A DNA stretch of 64,000 nt, taken from the NCBI GenBank assembly GCA_000165345.1, contig CM000434.1:1184001-1248000 (forward strand). The letters are read 5' to 3'. The notes below the pieces were generated by a model. It saw nothing but the letters and a program-made list of their open reading frames with translations. It had not been told where the DNA came from and searched no databases. Made by a program: the position numbers and the translations under genes. This document shows positions 43,175 to 54,305 of the stretch, piece after piece (the stretch's first letter is position 1; every line of letters begins with the position of its first letter).

Positions 43175-44214
43175 ATGACAGATTTTGTGACAAAAAAACT
43201 AGAAGTAGAAAATAAAGCTTCTAAAAGTGAAAATAGTGAGGAAATCGATTTAAATAATAAGGAAACATTTGTAAATCAAGTAGTTAGTGATGAAAATACA
43301 ATTTGTACAAGAGGAACAGAATCTTCGATTTTCACAATCTTGAGGAATTCAAGGAGAGAACATTTCTTTGATGCTCGTATAAAGTTATATAAAGAGAAGC
43401 TTAGTTTAATGGAGAAAGAAGGTAAGATGAAGTTCAGTAAGGGGATAAACTCTCGAAAAAGTATGCAAAGATGTTGCAAAATGAATAAATATCAAATATA
43501 CCGTATATTGATTACTATTTTGGGAGTTTTTTTTATGTTATTAGCATTGTTTGGTGTATCATTCTTATTGTTGCTTCCAAAGATTGCTGAAATTCAAATA
43601 AGGAACTCAAAAATGGATATTCAAGAAATCAATGTTTTTCAGATTAGTAGGCAGAATGGAGAAACTTCATTTGAAGTGGATTCAATATTGGCTATAGATA
43701 AAGTATCAAAGTACAAGACTGAGTTTATTCATTCATTAATGCAGATAAGCTATGGAATAAAAGGAGAAGAAACTAAATCTTTGGGTGAATTATATATTTC
43801 ACAGATGTCTGTGAATGAGGATGGAATTTTAAAAGCAAGAGGAAGATTTACAATAAGGAATAATGAATCACTTAATGAATTGATTAATTACATGACATCA
43901 AGTTTGAATGTTAATAACAAGGATGAAGCTATAGAGAAGAATATCACATTTTATGGGAAAGGTTTAATGTCTCTAAGGATCTTTGGAATATTACTAAATA
44001 ACATAAATGTGGATAGAGAACTGAGCTATTCTTCAGTTTATGGATTGAATGGAACGTCTGAAAGAAGTTCTATTAATGGAAAGGAGGTTAGAGACAGAGT
44101 TTCTTCTGATAATGCCCCACTTTCGAACAAAAATGGATTAAAAATTCATAATATTTGGTTAAACTCTCACAAAATGGGTGGTATGAGATTGAATCTAGAG
44201 CTTGAACTTGATTT
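43175..44214 (+). CDS. Type II membrane protein paralog (5' part; ORF continues into N-masked region)
   Basis: Cytoplasmic N-terminus, then one TM (IYRILITILGVFFMLLALFGVSFLLLL), then the shared QIRNSK motif. There is no stop before the masked stretch. Confidence 0.6.
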
Positions 44215-47175
44215 TCANANANNNANNGNTNANAATNGNANANNANNNNNNTNNAANNAGNTNTTNNNNNNNNNNNCNNNANNTNGNNNATANNGNNNNC
44301 TNANNNNANNNNTNNNAATANNNANAATNNNANNTNNNTANTGCANANTCNNNTNGTNNNATGNAANNNTNCNNNTTCANNTNNANNANNTTNNNNNTAN
44401 TNNNTNNGNTTTATTNNNNGNGNANNNNANNANNNNNNATNNNNNNNNNNNNCNATAANNANNNTNTTNNAAAANNNGNNANNTCCNANNNNNTTNNNNN
44501 ANNNAAANNNNNNNNNTNNNGANNNGNNNNCNNNNANNNNNNNNNNNNNTNATNNNNNANTGAANNNNNNANTTNTNNNTNNTTTAAGNNGTNNNNTNNN
44601 ANNNNNATNNNNNNNNNTNNNTNNNNNNNNNNNNNNNNNNNNTNTCNNTNNNNNNNTCTNTCTNNNNTNNNTNNNTNTNTNNNNNTNTNNNNNTNTNTNC
44701 NNNNCTCNGATNANNNNNNNNNTTACTNNCTNNNANNCNTAAANTNNNNTTANATTNANNNNNTGNNCNNGATTANNNNNNNNANAANNNTAANNNCNAN
44801 NNNNNNTANNNCNNNNNNNACTNNNNNAANNNACCNGANNNTNNNNANNNNNNNTTNNNTNNNAAAGNNNNAAAAAAANNNNNNNCTTNNTCNNTNANAA
44901 ANNTNNNNCNNANCNCNNNNNAANNNTGNTNCNNNANNNNCNNNNNCGNNTNNTNNNTNATNANNNNNNTNNNTNNNNNNNNANNGNTANNNNNAATNNA
45001 NNNNNNNTNNTGNNNNNNATNTANAAAANNNTNNNNANTTNTNTCANNANNTNNNNNTNNNNANNNNTNNNNANTNNNNGNTNTNNATNNANNNAANNAN
45101 NNTNTNNNNNTCANNNNANNNNNNNNTNTNNNGGANNATNNNNNNNANNNAAANANNNNCNNNNATAANGNNNNNCNAAANNNTACANNNNTNGNNNNTT
45201 NNANANTNNCTNNNNTTANTTANTNNNNANTNCNANAANTTANNTNATTNNNANNNNNATANANNNNNCNNTNACAAGNATNNTNNGNNNNNCTNNNTNN
45301 AATNNAANANTNANACNANNNNNNNNNNTNNNNANACNNNNNNAANNNCCAANTNAANNNNNATNNANNNTNNNNNATNNGNANATGATGANNNTAANNN
45401 NNANGANNTANNNNANNNNNNNTNNNANNTNANNNNNNNNNNANTNCNNANNNNTNTNNTNNNNNNNNTNNNNCANNTTNTANNTCNNNTNNCANNNNNN
45501 NNNANNANNNTTNNGANNNGNNNNNAAANNNTNNTTATNNNTTNCTNNNNNNNNNNNANCCNNANTNCTANAGANANNCNNNNNNANACNATNNGNANNN
45601 NATTNNANCTNNATGNNNGNNNACNNNNNNNTNNTNNNGNANTNTNNNNNNNNNNTNNTNTNNNANTNANNNNNNNNNGNANANNNTTNATNNNTNNAAN
45701 ANNANATNNNNNNNTNNNTTANTNNNANNAANTANANNANNTNTTGANNNANNTNCNNANNNNNTANANTNATNNTNTNANNNANTNTNANNNNNTTCNT
45801 TNTNANNNNNGNTAAATNNNNNATNNNNGNNNNANNANNTNNNNTNGNNNTTANNNNNANTGAANNNNNAANNNATTNNTNTNTNNANTNNTNNAATTAT
45901 NCTNAATNNTTATNNGAANANNNATNNNANNTTTTGGANANNNAATNNAAAAGNNNACNNCNNATNNNNNANNANNNNNNANCNNNTAATAANAANATAA
46001 NNNNANNANNNATNNNNNNNTANATTTAANNNNTNNNNNNNTNNNNNTANNTNNNNCTATTNTTNAACTNNTTTTNNCNNNNNNNANTNNNNNNAATANT
46101 TNTNTCANTNNTAAANNNNNGNNNANNNANTNNNATNTNANNNNAGNCNANNNNNNNNNNANTCNAATNNCNNNTNTNATNATNANNNNNNANNTGAAAN
46201 TNGNNTNNATNNTGANANANAANAAANANNAAANANAANNATGNNNNNNNNAATNNNANNNNANANAAATTANANTNNATNNNNNANTNNNNNTTNTTNN
46301 AGNNNAATTNATNNNNNANNNNNANTNNTGANNNANANTNANNANTNNTNNNNNGNNNTANGNTNTANGTNTNANTNNCNATTATNNNNNNNTNNNNTNN
46401 NNNANNNNNTNNNNGNNNNNTGNTGNCNTGNNATNNTANNNNTNNNATNATNTNAANNNANTNNNNNANNNNNTNTNNNANNNNNTNATANNANNNNACN
46501 AANNNNNNNNNNNNNNNNNNNTNNNANNNNNNTNNTCNNANNNCATNNNANNNANGNAAAGANTNNANANTNNNNTNNNNNANNNAANNTNACNNNATTN
46601 NANNNTNNNNNTNTANTNNNNAAANNAATNNANTNGNTNNNANNNTTTNNNNTNNANNNNNNTNNNNNTAANTNAATNANTNNANNANNNNNTNNNCNGN
46701 NNNTNAANNNNNNNNTNNNTANNNGGNGNNANNNNNTNNNNNNNANNNTNNNNNNNNNATNNNNTNNNANNNNCANNANANNNNNCNNATNNNTNNATNN
46801 NNGNNNNNTNATNNNTNNNNNAANTNNNNNANTANANNNAATGTANTNATNNNNNNNNANTTGNANGANNGNNTANATNNNTNNNANANNNNNNNNNNNN
46901 NNTTNATANNTNCTNNNANANNNNTTGATATACAGTNGNNTATNAGNTNTCAATANNCNANANTATGTTGAAANTATGNAANTTNNTNTAANNANGGNTN
47001 NACTGNNTNTTTNNNTTGGAAAAGATGTCNANANGANCNNNTANTCAGCNNTNANNNAGANTCNNAGANANGCNTATNNTTCNGCNNACNAAGTNGANTG
47101 TATCGNAGTCAGNNTGTNATGNTNTTGNTCCNNNTGNAGTTCANGNNNTCNNATGANGNANTNGATCNNGAANTA
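44215..47175. other. Heavily N-masked interval (about 70-75% N interspersed with single residual bases); not annotatable
   Basis: Direct observation. The X-filled ORFs in the track are artefacts of N translation. Confidence 0.95.
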
Positions 47176-47334
47176 GANNAANATNANGAAGAAAAATTAC
47201 ATATTAAAGCTATTAATACTCCTCATGGTATACCATATTGGCTTGTTCCAGTATTTGAATTTCTCAAATTACCAGCTTCCAGTACTTTAAGTAGTCTAGA
47301 TTCAGCAGAGTTTGGATCAGTTACTTTTTCATAA
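47176..47334 (+). CDS. 3' end of a gene emerging from the masked region (...EEKLHIKAINTPHGIPYWLVPVFEFLKLPASSTLSSLDSAEFGSVTFS*)
   Basis: Clean ORF tail with a stop at 47332-47334. It may be the C-terminus of the 43175 gene or of a separate gene. Confidence 0.4.
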   Translation, partial: XXXXEEKLHIKAINTPHGIPYWLVPVFEFLKLPASSTLSSLDSAEFGSVTFS

Positions 47335-47541: not shown

Positions 47542-49470
47542 ATGGATGATATTTATTTGGCAGAATTTCATGGTTTTATTGATGAAAAAACATGGGAAAT
47601 TGCTAAATTAAGTATACATTATCTTCATACACTTAAAGAAAATATAATAAAAGTCTTGGAAAATGGAGGTACACTTGAGAAATATTCTCATTTAAGAGAT
47701 TTAATTGAAATTGTAAGAATATGTATTTTACATGGTATTTTAATTGGAATAAATTATTTAAATAAATCAGAAGATAATTACAAATATGATTATGGTTCTT
47801 TGTATCATTTTGTAAGAATATTCCCAGAACTTAATGAATTAGGAAAAGTTGATGATATGTGTTTTTTATCATTTTTATTAATGAATAAAGTATTTACTGG
47901 ATTTCTTGAATCTATTAAAAATCCTTCATCAAAATGGAATCAAAGAATAACAATGTATTATCATCATGCTAGTATTTTGAGATATAGTGAATTCTTGAAA
48001 GAGTTTATTTTAATAATCAACAGTTTTGAAAATTGTCTAAGAATCAAAAATTTCCATATTCCTAATAATTGGATGACTTATTTTGCAAAATTATCATTAA
48101 GATGGAATAATTTTGGAAATGATCAAACAACAGAAATATCAATTATTAATGAGAATTTTAAGAATATTAAATATAAAACAAAACAATATAATCATCATGA
48201 TCAAAAAATTCTTAAAAATCTTACAAATATTAATGATATAGAAATTGATTCTAAATCTACTTTAAGTATTTTATTAAAGCAAGAATTTGAACAAAAGATC
48301 AATTTTAAAGATTATAATATATTTGATGATAGAGCTTTTATTTCAAAATCAAGTATATTAAATTCAAATAATGAATTGGATCCAGATATATTAAGTGATA
48401 ATAATGATCATATTGTTGTATATAATGAAAGAAATATTCAAGATATTGAAGATTTATTGGGGGATATGTGGTGTCCAATGTTTGATTATTCTCCTATATC
48501 TGAAAAACTTTATTTAGAAAATGAAGAAGAAAATTTTGTAAATTATGATAATGAAAATAATAATAATAATAACAATAATGACAATAATAATGAATATAAT
48601 AAATTACAAGAAAAAGATGAAAAAAATAATATAGAGTTAAATAATATTTATAATTATGAAGATATTAATCATTATATAAATATTAATAATGAATCAGATT
48701 TATCTAATTTCAAGATTAATTATGAATTAAAATTGATAAAAAATGATAATAATGAATTGAAAGAAAGGTATTTATCTTATTATCATATTCCATTAAATAA
48801 ACAAGAAGAAAGGTTAATATTAGAATTACAAGATTATAAATGTTTTACAAAACATTGTGAAAATATATTAGAATTTGATCAAGAATCTAAATTGAATTTC
48901 TGTTGTTTTACTGGTTATTATTATTGTGATTATTGTTATGGATCAAATACATGTTCAATTTTACCAGGTCTTCTTGCAAAATATGGAAATTTAACACCAG
49001 TTCCAGTATCAATTAAATCTAAAGAAAAATTAAAAAGTCTTGAAAATATACCATTGATTAAGATTCATTCATTAACAGCTGAAATATGGGAATCTAATAA
49101 GTATATTAAACAATTGGTATATTTGAAATCATATTTATCATCATTATTAATTATGAATGATAATAATAATAATAATAATAATAAATGTCAATATAAAGAA
49201 TCAATAAAAAGAAGATTATTAAGAGAATATGATATAATATATCAATTTGGTAGATATGAATATTTTTCAGTAAATCAATTAACAGAAATAGCTTATGAGA
49301 TATTTTCACAAGAGGTTACAATGTATTCAAATGAAACAAATATTCAAATTACTGTAAGAGAAATGAAAAATATTGCAATCAATTGGAGAAAACATTTATT
49401 AAAATGTATACATTGTCAATATCAAAATAAAAATTCAAAGAAAGATTTAATTTTATCTTTAAAAGAGTAA
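47542..49470 (+). CDS. RUN-domain plus Rubicon-homology (RH/DUF4206) zinc-finger protein (Rubicon/PLEKHM1/DEF8 class)
   Basis: The N-terminus is RUN-like (LHTLKENIIKVLENGGTLEKYSHLRDLIEIVRICILHGILIG...FLSFLLMN). The C-terminal Cys/His cluster (CFTKHCENI...FCCFTGYYYCDYCYGSNTCSILPGLLAKYGNLTPVPVS...IPLIKIHSL) is followed by the helical tail typical of RH domains. In between is a poly-N/D low-complexity region. Confidence 0.6.
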   Translation: MDDIYLAEFHGFIDEKTWEIAKLSIHYLHTLKENIIKVLENGGTLEKYSHLRDLIEIVRICILHGILIGINYLNKSEDNYKYDYGSLYHFVRIFPELNELGKVDDMCFLSFLLMNKVFTGFLESIKNPSSKWNQRITMYYHHASILRYSEFLKEFILIINSFENCLRIKNFHIPNNWMTYFAKLSLRWNNFGNDQTTEISIINENFKNIKYKTKQYNHHDQKILKNLTNINDIEIDSKSTLSILLKQEFEQKINFKDYNIFDDRAFISKSSILNSNNELDPDILSDNNDHIVVYNERNIQDIEDLLGDMWCPMFDYSPISEKLYLENEEENFVNYDNENNNNNNNNDNNNEYNKLQEKDEKNNIELNNIYNYEDINHYININNESDLSNFKINYELKLIKNDNNELKERYLSYYHIPLNKQEERLILELQDYKCFTKHCENILEFDQESKLNFCCFTGYYYCDYCYGSNTCSILPGLLAKYGNLTPVPVSIKSKEKLKSLENIPLIKIHSLTAEIWESNKYIKQLVYLKSYLSSLLIMNDNNNNNNNKCQYKESIKRRLLREYDIIYQFGRYEYFSVNQLTEIAYEIFSQEVTMYSNETNIQITVREMKNIAINWRKHLLKCIHCQYQNKNSKKDLILSLKE

Positions 49471-49850: not shown

Positions 49851-51558
49851 ATGTGGAATTTTTATAAAAAAATACCAAATATTAATTCATTTTATTCAGT
49901 TGGAAATGGAGAAGAAATAATACAAAGATTAAAAGTCAATAAGAAAGCATTATTAGTTTCAGGAGAAACTGAAGATTATAAAGGATGTACAAATGATATT
50001 ATAGAATATGCAGTAATACTTTCAAATATATATAAATTTAAAGAAATAAGAATTTTATTAAGTGAAAGTATCAGAAATTTTATATGGAAATTTTATATCA
50101 TTATCATTAAGTAGAATTAATGGAGCAATAATACAAATAGTAAGATTGTCAAAAAAATCTCTCAAAGAAGGATTTCAATGGTTAATTTCTATGGAAGAAA
50201 ATACAGGAAATGAAAACTATTACTCAGAATTTTCAAATATATATAGAGGAAATGATAATTTTGGGATGAATTTCTCAAATAATATTTATGATTTAGTATT
50301 TGTTTATTCTGGTCCAGTAAAATTTTCAAAGAATGATATTAATATTGATAATAATACAAATATAGAAAATGAAGCAGTTAACGGTCCATTTTTTTTAATT
50401 TCAAAAGGAAAAAAAAATGATAAAGATGAATATGATTATGATGATTATATAAGTTTTTCAGATTTTGATAGAATGATATTAGAAACAAATTCAAATAATA
50501 AAGGCAATTTGACATGTTTTTTGGATTGTAATTATTCATATATGTTTTTATCAGATTATACAAAAGGAGAAGAATATTGTAATAATAATAATAATAATAA
50601 TAATAGTAATTATGAAAATATTCGATTTAATCATCATCGAATATCAACAATGCCAGAAATAAATAATAATAATAATAATAAAGATCTCTTAAATATTAAT
50701 CCAAATAAGACATCTTATTACAAAAAGAGAGATCTTTCTGTAATAATATTAGCATCATGTTCTTCTTCAATACAAGATTCACAAGAAATTAAATTATGTT
50801 CAAATAATGGTATAGGATTATCAATAATATATAGAAGATTATTTTCATATTTTATTCAATCAATAATAAGATATCATTTTGAAAATATAATAAATAAAGA
50901 TAATAATCAAAATTTTCAATTAATTCCAAGAATTACTTTAAAATCTTTAATTGAAGAGATTTCAAGAAATATGTTTCATTATTTAACAAAAAATCATTTA
51001 AAGAATCAAATTCCAATATTATTAGCATCAGTTGGAATTTCAACACAAGATAATATATTATTAAATAATGATATGAATAATATAAATATGATGAATTATT
51101 TAAATGATGGTGATTATATTATTGGTAATTTTGATCAAAAAAATAAAATTAATTCTAATATATCATTATCATCATCAAATAATATAATGAATTTTAATAA
51201 ATTTCCAATAAAGAATTTAAATATGGGAAATAATAAAAGAATATATAATAATAATAATAATAATAATTGTTATATGTATCAAAGAAATATTCCAAATATT
51301 AGTATTAGTCCAAATTCTAATTCTAATTTGATTCAAGAGATTAATCAATTAAGATCAGAATTATCTTATTTAAAACAAACTATCAATTCTGAAAATATTG
51401 CTCGAAATTTCAATTATAATGAAAATAATTATAATAGAATAAATAATGGATATAAAAGTTATTGTCCTGTTCAAATTTTCAATTCAGATACTATTTTTAA
51501 AAAAAGTGTAAAACCATCATCAACTATAACTCATCATAGAACATTCACATCAAAGTAA
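49851..51558 (+). CDS. Metacaspase-like (peptidase C14 fold) protein with degenerate catalytic dyad (pseudo-metacaspase); exons 49851-50067 and 50141-51558; intron 50068-50140
   Basis: Exon 1: KKALLVSGETEDYKGCTNDI matches the metacaspase start KxALLIGINYxGxxxxLxGCxNDV. Exon 2, in another frame: FQWLIS...DLVFVYSGPV (in place of the LFFHYSGHG His motif) and LTCFLDCNYS (in place of LTAxFDSCHSG). A GTATCA...AAATAG intron joins the two in phase. The long N-rich C-terminus is low-complexity. Confidence 0.55.
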
Positions 51559-52250: not shown

Positions 52251-54305
52251 ATGAGAGAGGAGTATAACTATGATAGTTATAAGTACAGAGAGGGTGGAAT
52301 TAAAAGAGAGGAGTTGAAACAAAATAAGTTTGGTAGAGCAGAACTTTTAAAAAAGGAAAATGAATTAAGCAAACGAGAAGGAGCAGTGTTAAAGTCCAAA
52401 AATGTTCCAAAGCTTGCTTTGGAATCTGTGGATCCAAAAAGCAAATGGAAACAAATAACATCTAGTACATTCTACGGTGACTCGGGTCCATTACTTTCAA
52501 AGTTACACTCAGTTCCAGAGGAATTACAAAGACACTTTGAGATTTATGATGGAATTGAGGGAGTATTAGGTAGAGGAGCGTATTCAAGCGTATTTAAGAT
52601 CAGAAGTAAAAGAAGTGGTAATATATATGCATTAAAAGTTATGAGCGTAGAGCATTTTACTTGTAGAGGATTGTCAGGACAATTAAGAAGAGAAATTCAA
52701 CTTCAATCACAATGTTTTCATCCTAATATTGTTCAGTTATATAAATGTTTGGAACATAATGGGTATGTATTTTTGATTCTAGAGTATGTAGACACTAATT
52801 TATTCAATATTCTTCATAGAAAAAAGAAGAACCATGTAATTAGAGCTGGAGCTAGACGAAATAGATATATTCCAAGTGACGAAGAATATCAAGAAGAAGA
52901 ATCGTCTCTTTTTGCAAGAAATGAAGTGGTGAGTTATTTAACCCAAATACTCAAGGCTATTAATTATCTTCATGAAATGAGTATAGTTCATAGAGATGTT
53001 AAGCCTGAGAATATTTTAATTTCTTGTGAAGGAAGAGTTAAGCTTGGAGATTTTGGGTGGTGTGGAGATTTATGTAGGAGATGTAATTCAATGGCAGGAA
53101 CATTCTGTTATATGGCTCCAGAAATCCTTAAAGGTGAAAGACAAACAGCTAAAGTGGATTCTTGGAGCGTTGGAATTTTAATTTACGAGCTTTATATGGG
53201 AAATGTACCATTTATTCCAAATAACTCATCTGGAGGAGGAGGGAGAGGAGGAAGAGAGGGAGAATGTGATGGAAATACTAATTCTCAAGTAATTTCAATG
53301 CTAAATTCTATTAGAGAAATCTCCAAGGATGCAAGACCCAGTAGATTTCCACCAGATGCCTGGCATCTTTGTTGTTGGCTACTAAGGAAAAACTCCAACG
53401 AAAGAGCTTCTCCAATTCAAGCTCTCAACCATCCATTTCTAGCTGATGGCAACCTTACTTCTCCCATTCCTATTACTCCTTTCAGAAGGCCTGAATTTCA
53501 ATTAAATTCTACTCCAAAGACTGTCAGGCAAGATATATCTTCCCCTAAAGTACAAAATTCCACTACTTTTACTACCCTTCCTCTTGTTGCAGTTCCCACT
53601 CCAAGAAAAGCCTCCGAGAAGGAAAAGTTGAGGCCAGAAACCCAAATTAAAAGAATGGTAACTGAGATACCAACTAATATGTATAACTATAACTATAACT
53701 ATAACTCTGAAAGAAGTTCTGGTTTGCATGCCAATAATAACTATCTCTCGCAGAAAACTGCTTTGAATGCACCTGTTGTTGGAGTTGGACCAGGAATTAA
53801 TGTTGTTTCTGTCCAAACTGATCACTACAAACAACAAAATCCTAGTTCTGAAACTAGGTACTATCAATATCAACAGGCCCGTGTCGCAAATACCAAAAGA
53901 GCAGATGAACCTCAGAGAAGAGATCTTTCTGTTGTTAGGAATCCTCTTCCCAGAGATCATTTTGGCCCAGGATACTTACAAAAGATTCCTCAACAGTATC
54001 CTATTGATCAAAACCCTAGAATCAATTATAATGAAAACTTCCAGGTTTCATCAAGGCCTGTATTTGATAGAAATCAGTTATATGGACAAGCACCACCTCA
54101 GCCTCAAGGAATCATCTCTCGTGATATTTATATGCCTCCTGTTCCACAAATGGGATCAGGATTTCCCCAAAATCAGCCCAACAAACCCATATTAAGGCAA
54201 AATACACCTCCAAATAGATATGTCAGTCAACCTCCCATATATTACTATGAACAACAACCATCACAAGTAAGAAGGAATCACTACATATCACAAAACCACC
54301 ATTGA
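52251..54305 (+). CDS. Aurora-family Ser/Thr kinase with long Q/P/N-rich C-terminal tail
   Basis: Kinase motifs: LGRGAYSSVFK...YALKVM, HPNIVQLY, VHRDVKPENILIS, GDFGW (the Aurora-typical DFGWS), GTFCYMAPE, DSWSVGILIYELYMGNVPF. There is a kinase-insert region. A (TATAAC)4 repeat at 53684-53710 encodes NYNYNYN. Confidence 0.8.
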   Translation: MREEYNYDSYKYREGGIKREELKQNKFGRAELLKKENELSKREGAVLKSKNVPKLALESVDPKSKWKQITSSTFYGDSGPLLSKLHSVPEELQRHFEIYDGIEGVLGRGAYSSVFKIRSKRSGNIYALKVMSVEHFTCRGLSGQLRREIQLQSQCFHPNIVQLYKCLEHNGYVFLILEYVDTNLFNILHRKKKNHVIRAGARRNRYIPSDEEYQEEESSLFARNEVVSYLTQILKAINYLHEMSIVHRDVKPENILISCEGRVKLGDFGWCGDLCRRCNSMAGTFCYMAPEILKGERQTAKVDSWSVGILIYELYMGNVPFIPNNSSGGGGRGGREGECDGNTNSQVISMLNSIREISKDARPSRFPPDAWHLCCWLLRKNSNERASPIQALNHPFLADGNLTSPIPITPFRRPEFQLNSTPKTVRQDISSPKVQNSTTFTTLPLVAVPTPRKASEKEKLRPETQIKRMVTEIPTNMYNYNYNYNSERSSGLHANNNYLSQKTALNAPVVGVGPGINVVSVQTDHYKQQNPSSETRYYQYQQARVANTKRADEPQRRDLSVVRNPLPRDHFGPGYLQKIPQQYPIDQNPRINYNENFQVSSRPVFDRNQLYGQAPPQPQGIISRDIYMPPVPQMGSGFPQNQPNKPILRQNTPPNRYVSQPPIYYYEQQPSQVRRNHYISQNHH

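Follow-up and report, generated by a model that had tools for sequence, protein, structure and literature searches.

A single surplus A splits a Cryptosporidium parvum chromosome 6 gene that likely encodes a divergent, non-catalytic metacaspase-fold protein

The locus

We analysed a 64,000-nucleotide (nt) stretch of chromosome 6 from the 2004 reference of Cryptosporidium parvum Iowa II (GenBank assembly GCA_000165345.1, contig CM000434.1, positions 1,184,001 to 1,248,000; hereafter the window), in which positions 49851-51558 are one unbroken protein-coding gene without an intron. All coordinates are window positions and all features of this gene lie on the + strand. In the window the gene appears as two open reading frames (ORFs) in different frames, ORF1 (49851-50114, 87 amino acids) and ORF2 (50062-51558, 498 amino acids). 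A preceding reading of the letters alone, here called the original prediction, had correctly placed the two coding segments in different frames; it joined them through a 73-nt intron and described the product as a metacaspase-like protein with a degenerate His/Cys dyad. Our own interpretation, which we consider likely as a whole, is that there is no intron, that a single extra A separates the frames and that the product is a divergent, non-catalytic metacaspase-fold protein.

The flanking genes are exact matches to EAK90091.1, a cysteine-rich protein with a Rubicon-homology domain (47542-49470), and to EAK90093.1, a protein kinase (52251-54305). The locus tags of these neighbours indicate that the gene is probably cgd6_5210; in newer assemblies it is named CPATCC_0016850 / QOY41409.1. 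The 2004 annotation has only a 455-amino-acid product (EAK90092.1/XP_627842.1), whose ATG at 50191-50193 is Met114 of the 568-residue protein described below. The GC content of this gene (19.2%) and of the Rubicon-homology-domain gene (20.0%) compares with 36.4% for the adjoining kinase and ∼30-35% for the remaining window, and both AT-rich genes contain Asn-rich low-complexity runs. Scans for bacterial promoters and terminators were set aside as irrelevant to a eukaryote.

One extra A separates the two frames

Deleting one A from the window gene yielded a 568-amino-acid protein identical to QOY41409.1/WKS78639.1 (CPATCC_0016850). Codons 1-72 are read in the ORF1 frame (49851-50066), encode a sequence identical to residues 1-72 of QOY41409.1 and include strand beta1 (KKALLVSGE, 49941-49967), the GCTND motif (49983-49997) and the strand EIRILLSE (50043-50066). 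Codons 73-568 and the stop codon follow in the ORF2 frame (50068-51558). DNA alignments placed the surplus base in the AAA run at 50065-50067, where the window reads GTGAAAGTATC, C. meleagridis GTGAAGTATC and chipmunk genotype I GTGAGGTATC, with one A more in the window. It was missing from the two newer C. parvum chromosome 6 assemblies (CP029785.1 and CP141123.1), both of which carry a 568-amino-acid ORF, from two C. meleagridis assemblies and from chipmunk genotype I; in the latter two taxa the gene is likewise a single unbroken ORF with the same neighbours. This base is the sole cause of the frame offset between ORF1 and ORF2, and it led to the truncated 455-amino-acid annotation of the 2004 genome. 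Programmed ribosomal frameshifting was rejected, since no other genome has the extra base, not even the other C. parvum assemblies.

The most likely origin of the extra A is a mistake in base calling or assembly of the 2004 Sanger reference. According to Baptista et al. (PMC8744675), that sequence contains indels and frameshifts besides 18,558 ambiguous bases; re-annotation mended 523 genes and 113 fragmented 'pseudogenes'. A comparison of the window with CP029785.1 over 4,017 nt showed just two differences, the extra A and a G at 50148 that is synonymous (TTG/TTA, Leu) and is A in all other compared genomes. With 81 nt between them, these two changes peculiar to the window suggest one low-quality read, and a block of Ns 2.7 kb upstream of the gene indicates that the old assembly is locally poor here.

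Alternatively, the base could be a genuine mutation of the Iowa II stock from which the 2004 sequence was made. The gene would then be disrupted in that line, leaving an 87-residue stub with possible re-initiation at Met114, and would be dispensable in calf passage. Indels in A runs are common as real mutations. Moreover, the 2004 and IOWA-ATCC sequences share their DNA source, drawn on at an interval of years, and diverge by 0.07% (PMC8744675); two differences in 4,017 nt approximate this rate and are not abnormal in themselves, which tells against a sequencing error. A genuine mutation is nevertheless less easily reconciled with the 496 downstream codons, which are protein-identical to those of the other C. 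parvum assemblies and display no further decay, or with purifying selection on the gene across the genus. In a variant survey of IOWA isolates, all listed frameshift variants fell in genes of cgd1, 2, 3 and 8 and none on chromosome 6 (PMC12179316), and both the close spacing of the two differences and the ambiguous bases just upstream speak for a poor read. On balance we judge a genuine mutation unlikely.

The N block itself comprises 1,766 Ns at 44218-47187 (∼60% of positions) and sits within the upstream 1,326-amino-acid gene, the orthologue of CPATCC_0016830 / cpbgf_6005190. It probably reflects the ambiguous bases described for the 2004 reference (PMC8744675). An apparent GC content of 5-7% and the ORFs at 44202-45815, 46241-47176 and 46270-46953 are artefacts of this block. 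An 'extremely AT-rich island' at 44-47 kb was dropped for the same reason.

The proposed intron is conserved coding sequence

According to the original prediction, a 73-nt GT-AG spliceosomal intron at 50068-50140 joins the frames to give a 544-amino-acid pseudo-metacaspase. The predicted GTATCA at 50068 and the AAATAG ending at 50140 are indeed present, excision of the 73 nt restores one frame with a 544-residue product, and this product is without an insertion that canonical metacaspases also lack. However, the segment encodes residues 73-97 (VSEILYGNFISLSLSRINGAIIQIV), a family-specific insertion between beta2 and alpha2, and its assignment as an intron did not hold. All 10 of the 10 orthologues translate it as SE-VSEILYGNFISLSLSRxNGAxxQIV-RLSKK, and the ORF2 frame of the window encodes exactly this peptide over 50068-50142. 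Within it Y78, G79, F81, L86, G91 and I96 are invariant among 11 species whose overall identity falls to 39%. The ratio of nonsynonymous to synonymous substitution rates (dN/dS) over its 25 codons, taken in the downstream frame, was 0.14 against C. meleagridis and 0.36 against chipmunk genotype I. In every other compared genome the extra A is missing, so that excision of these 73 nt would shift the frame.

The boundaries themselves did not discriminate, because 20 GT/AG donor-acceptor pairs nearby also leave the frame open in this 19% GC sequence, placing the signal at chance level. The spliced 544-residue protein was absent from every collection searched, and the re-annotation, in which all introns have RNA-seq support, has the single 568-amino-acid ORF (PMC8744675). 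We regard the intron as extremely improbable.

Over codons 1-72, dN/dS was 0.09-0.26 against the same two relatives. The value over the entire gene was 0.40-0.48, indicating a fast-evolving yet constrained gene.

A protein family kept throughout Cryptosporidium

The closest homologues were all Cryptosporidium proteins, which aligned along the full length of the query. The family comprises members from C. parvum, C. hominis, C. meleagridis, chipmunk genotype I, C. ubiquitum, C. canis, C. felis, C. ryanae and C. andersoni/muris/serpentis and from two Logan assemblies, so the gene is kept genus-wide, gastric species included. Database names across the family are 'hypothetical' or 'transmembrane' only. 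Several gene models are fragmented: C. tyzzeri TRY50917.1 has 291 amino acids (residues 267-568), C. hominis TU502 XP_664879.1 has 226 (residues 1-227) on a 938-bp contig, and the C. parvum Iowa II model has 455 (residues 114-568). The gene was not found in the literature under cgd6_5210, CPATCC_0016850, cpbgf_6005210, Q5CWG2 or A0A7S7RG08.

Profile comparison points to a metacaspase-type domain

The motifs on which the metacaspase-like identity had been proposed are all present: KKALLVSGE...GCTND (49941-49997), VYSGPV (50302-50319) and FLDCNYS (50515-50535). The proposed check with HMMER against Peptidase_C14 failed, and the identity was recovered by profile-profile comparison. Up to E<=10, PF00656 matched neither the spliced model nor the repaired protein, nor did it match any of the 10 orthologues, and no family member carries a precomputed Pfam domain. 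PDB sequences yielded no match by phmmer or by profile, and profile searches of PDB sequences, 5.8 billion proteins and 1.84 billion representatives returned no metacaspase. An exhaustive HMMER profile search of the 1.84 billion representatives recovered six clusters, all from Cryptosporidium, and a domain-only profile trimmed of low-complexity sequence again found only Cryptosporidium at E<=10. The HMMER profile searches thus offered no bridge to homologues in Plasmodium, Toxoplasma or gregarines.

For profile-profile comparison we used metacaspases that all carry PF00656; the Yca1 core sequence was 100% identical to one of them, P0033. When the 11-member family was aligned with 22 PF00656 proteins by hhalign, a match of 94% probability and E 1.3e-7 was obtained over 235 columns, running collinearly from KALL to the p10 helix. 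Its score of 64.8 compares with 13.7 for a reversed template and at most 21.2 for twenty column-shuffled templates (controls 12-21). MAFFT independently reproduced the hhalign register from end to end. Among 41 sequences of both families the invariant columns were A-L (of KALL), G-C-x-N-D, W-L, Y-x-G, T...D-C, Q, G, S and Q-x-P...S, all of which are signature positions.

An E value well inside the usual inclusion thresholds led us to merge the domain region of the family with 33 metacaspases for structure prediction. The merged-alignment model reached a predicted local distance difference test score (pLDDT) of 76.5 and a predicted template modelling score (pTM) of 0.81, with low confidence in two lineage-specific loops. 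As modelled, the domain adopts a caspase/haemoglobinase alpha-beta-alpha fold closest to solved metacaspases. This match is partly circular, because the model alignment included yeast metacaspases, and the model is therefore consistent with the homology evidence and not independent of it.

Several results weigh against the metacaspase assignment: besides the silence of Pfam, the PDB sequences and the large profile searches, and the circularity just described, a family-only AlphaFold2 model built from six orthologues was unusable (pLDDT 30.5), and Foldseek found no significant match in the PDB. The likeness could then be spurious, arising from a generic Rossmann-like alpha/beta protein whose AT-biased, low-complexity sequence gives a false profile match. 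The best Foldseek matches, dehydrogenases and glycosyltransferases at E ∼0.05-0.2, would fit this explanation, as would the dependence of the confident model on metacaspase sequences within its alignment. Given the distance of the hhalign score from its reversed and shuffled controls and the restriction of invariant columns to signature positions, we find a spurious match very unlikely. The metacaspase-like assignment thus appears correct; it needed profile-profile methods and is apparently unannotated.

Domain layout

In its N-terminal part, at residues ∼29-404, the 568-amino-acid protein is likely to carry a caspase-fold domain of the metacaspase type (clan CD, family C14). Relative to canonical metacaspases it contains three lineage-specific insertions. 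The first, 19-25 residues after strand beta2 in the hhalign and MAFFT alignments, is the peptide formerly taken for an intron; the second, ∼35 residues long, follows helix alpha2. As the third, a long and variable linker of low pLDDT joins the p20-like and p10-like halves; it is hypervariable apart from an invariant H261-x-R263-x-x-T266-x-P268 motif (50632-50655). Since the S1 pocket described below is intact and of the Arg/Lys type, Arg263 in this motif may be a pseudosubstrate or the relic of an autoprocessing site.

The p10-like half (50737-51030) comprises SVIILASCSS, QEIKLCSNNG, a core helix GLSIIYRRLFSYFIQSIIRY, a helix ITLKSLIEEISRNMFHYL and the terminal strand NQIPILLAS. By hhalign and MAFFT it is collinear with metacaspase SG.KD.QTSAD / TGAMS.AF / SYLSLLQNMR / QKPQLSSS, and its pLDDT in the merged-alignment model was 87-94.

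Two conserved elements lie outside the caspase-like domain. A C-terminal helix, NLIQEINQLRSELSYLKQTINSENIARNF (residues 492-520, 51325-51411), is conserved in all members and is probably a coiled coil; it was predicted in the first, family-only model (pLDDT 30.5) and gave a weak TSC22 leucine-zipper-like Pfam match (E 2.5), the C-terminal region being otherwise without a family match. The tail, PVQIFNSDTIFKKSVKPSS..HHRTFTSK (residues 539-568, 51466-51555), is near-invariant across the genus, with the pattern ...PVQIFNSD.IFKKSVKPSS..HHRTFTSK.

The orthologues of chipmunk genotype I and C. felis are those named 'transmembrane'. In 19-residue windows the top Kyte-Doolittle score was 1.27, and the hydrophobic stretch GLSIIYRRLFSYFIQSII (50815-50874) makes up a strand and a helix in the core of the predicted fold (pLDDT ∼90). 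The label is therefore probably spurious.

The catalytic His is replaced; an invariant Cys and the S1 pocket are kept

To locate functional residues, positions reported for characterized metacaspases (PMC4357240, PMC9622860) were mapped onto the 11 family species through the hhalign and MAFFT alignments. Both alignments placed Pro155 (50314-50316), in the His-motif strand and loop DLVFVYSGPV (50290-50319), in the catalytic-His column (Yca1 His220 / TbMCA2 His158). Of the 11 species, 8 have Pro there and the other three have Leu (C. felis), Lys (C. ryanae) or Tyr (C. andersoni); the column after it holds Val, Ser or Thr in place of Gly.

The Cys motif NLTCFLDCNYSY (50506-50541) contains Asp225 (50524-50526), an S1-pocket residue, and Cys226 (50527-50529), and both are invariant in all 11 family members and all 33 metacaspases. 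By deleting the preceding S/A, hhalign and MAFFT set Cys226 in the catalytic-Cys column (Yca1 Cys276 / TbMCA2 Cys213); in an ungapped register it stands one residue upstream of that column. The H-S-G that follows the Cys in D-[SA]-C-H-S-G is replaced by N/D/R/E-Y/F-S/G. The dyad is thus degenerate as the original prediction had it, with the His lost; of its two suggestions for the Cys, displacement by one residue fits and loss does not. The gapped alignments of catalytic positions have a Cys in the catalytic column and no His in the His column.

The acidic S1 pocket that accommodates Arg/Lys is formed in TbMCA2 by Cys92, Asp95, Ser156 and Asp211 (PMC4357240). It is kept in the family: Cys46, Asp49 and Asp225 are invariant (11/11), and position 153, the S1-pocket Ser position of DLVFVYSGPV, is Ser (as in C. 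parvum) or Cys. The allosteric Ca2+ site consists of four Asp residues, TbMCA2 Asp173/189/190/220 (PMC4357240, PMC9622860). In place of Asp189 and Asp220 the family has an invariant Phe202 and an invariant Leu233, the equivalent of Asp190 is Ser or Thr in 10 of 11 species and Asp in C. andersoni, and that of Asp173, within a poorly aligned loop, is N, K, G or a gap. Judged by these alignments, the allosteric Ca2+ site is dismantled.

With the general-base His, its Gly and the Ca2+ switch gone, the canonical Cys-His mechanism presumably cannot operate. Granted the homology, the protein is on balance probably catalytically inactive, a view we hold somewhat less firmly than the interpretation as a whole. 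This inactivity is read from sequence, and an invariant Cys with an intact S1 pocket would also fit an active enzyme using an alternative base. The protein could accordingly be an active, Arg/Lys-specific and Ca2+-independent cysteine protease in which Cys226 works with a non-canonical base, for example the linker residue His261, or with water. Cys226 and the four S1 positions are invariant or conservatively substituted in 11 of 11 species while much else varies, and His261 is invariant. Le Chat et al. considered the same possibility for Plasmodium MC2/MC3, and in rodent-malaria MC1 a Cys one residue upstream is considered catalytic (PMC2075530). On the other hand, the His column is free to vary (P/L/K/Y) and the Gly after it, present clan-wide, is gone, as expected once catalysis has been abandoned. 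Also gone are the HSG following the Cys and the Ca2+ site, which contributes to drawing the catalytic residues together. His261 falls in a low-confidence loop of the model, and the known metacaspase homologues with dyad substitutions that have been assayed are inactive (TbMCA4, PMC3220528). We regard an active protease as the main biological alternative, though an improbable one.

Discussion

How a non-catalytic metacaspase fold might be used is suggested by its pattern of conservation. Strict conservation of the S1 pocket and Cys226 argues that the cleft is still in use. As a pseudo-peptidase, the protein would bind basic (Arg/Lys) peptide segments in the preserved pocket without Ca2+-dependent cleavage. 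The bound segment might belong to a partner protein or be the protein's own invariant H-x-R linker motif, and the C-terminal coiled coil could mediate assembly with partners. The protein may thus act as a regulator or scaffold, like TbMCA4 in trypanosomes.

TbMCA4 is a dyad-substituted metacaspase that acts non-catalytically; it is a virulence factor and undergoes processing by MCA3, which is active (PMC3220528, PMC6657590). The Cryptosporidium family resembles T. brucei MCA4 and MCA1 in its predicted metacaspase fold, in substitution within the catalytic dyad, here of the His, and in its retention under purifying selection (dN/dS 0.40-0.48). The substitutions are reversed, however: TbMCA4 retains the His and has Ser for Cys, TbMCA1 has Tyr for His and Ser for Cys, whereas the Cryptosporidium proteins have kept a Cys and lost the His. 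TbMCA4 is also easily recognized by sequence, while the Cryptosporidium family escapes Pfam.

Among apicomplexans, the closest parallels are Plasmodium PxMC2/PxMC3 (PF14_0363, PF14_0160), C14 homologues without the consensus His and Cys. A Cys one residue upstream together with no His has been described in PfMC3 and PvMC3, and the shifted Cys alone in rodent-malaria MC1 (PMC2075530, PMC3058108). Compared by description only, PxMC2/PxMC3 are far larger and have a C-terminal caspase domain, in contrast to the N-terminal domain of the 568-residue Cryptosporidium protein. Relative to Yca1, TbMCA2, AtMC4 and AtMC9, the family is without the catalytic His, the following Gly and the HSG, and has a one-residue deletion before the Cys. 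Two Ca2+ ligands of canonical metacaspases have become an invariant Phe and Leu; the beta2 and alpha2 insertions, the C-terminal coiled coil and the tail have been added, and the N-terminal Pro/Gln-rich or zinc-finger prodomain is absent. Caspase-fold pseudoenzymes such as c-FLIP and the Raptor caspase-like domain, which are specific to metazoans or to the TOR complex, belong to other subfamilies and lack an acidic S1 pocket of the metacaspase type. The accessible metacaspase reviews do not mention Cryptosporidium. A C. parvum 'metacaspase' transcript has served as an apoptosis marker in quantitative PCR, with a gene identifier not recoverable from the text or supplement (PMC6704102).

It is conceivable, though improbable, that the family is alive as a Ca2+-independent metacaspase derivative, either a protease with a non-canonical base or a substrate-trapping receptor. 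As a receptor, it would carry its own pseudosubstrate, the invariant linker Arg263, in S1 until a partner dislodges this residue. Regulation of this kind would be new to the C14 fold, in a parasite not known to have any characterized metacaspase.

In practical terms, users of the 2004 Iowa II sequence or of XP_627842.1 work with a protein that lacks its first 113 residues, including beta1, the GCTND S1-pocket motif and alpha2. An intron invented as a repair gives the wrong protein, and the newer assemblies are preferable. Because pseudo-metacaspases are established in Trypanosoma and have been proposed in Plasmodium, the non-catalytic metacaspase-fold protein that we favour is not a new kind of system. 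It would be a very divergent addition to them, relevant chiefly to Cryptosporidium and clan-CD specialists. The metacaspase (clan CD, C14) fold can now be attributed to a protein that is called 'hypothetical' or 'transmembrane' throughout the genus, and Cryptosporidium would join the apicomplexans that keep dyad-deficient metacaspase homologues. The assignment provides a specific, testable hypothesis, that of an Arg/Lys-binding pseudo-peptidase. With its S1 pocket and Cys invariant, its His variable and its Ca2+ site gone, the family would constitute a natural experiment on what a metacaspase fold preserves once catalysis is lost.

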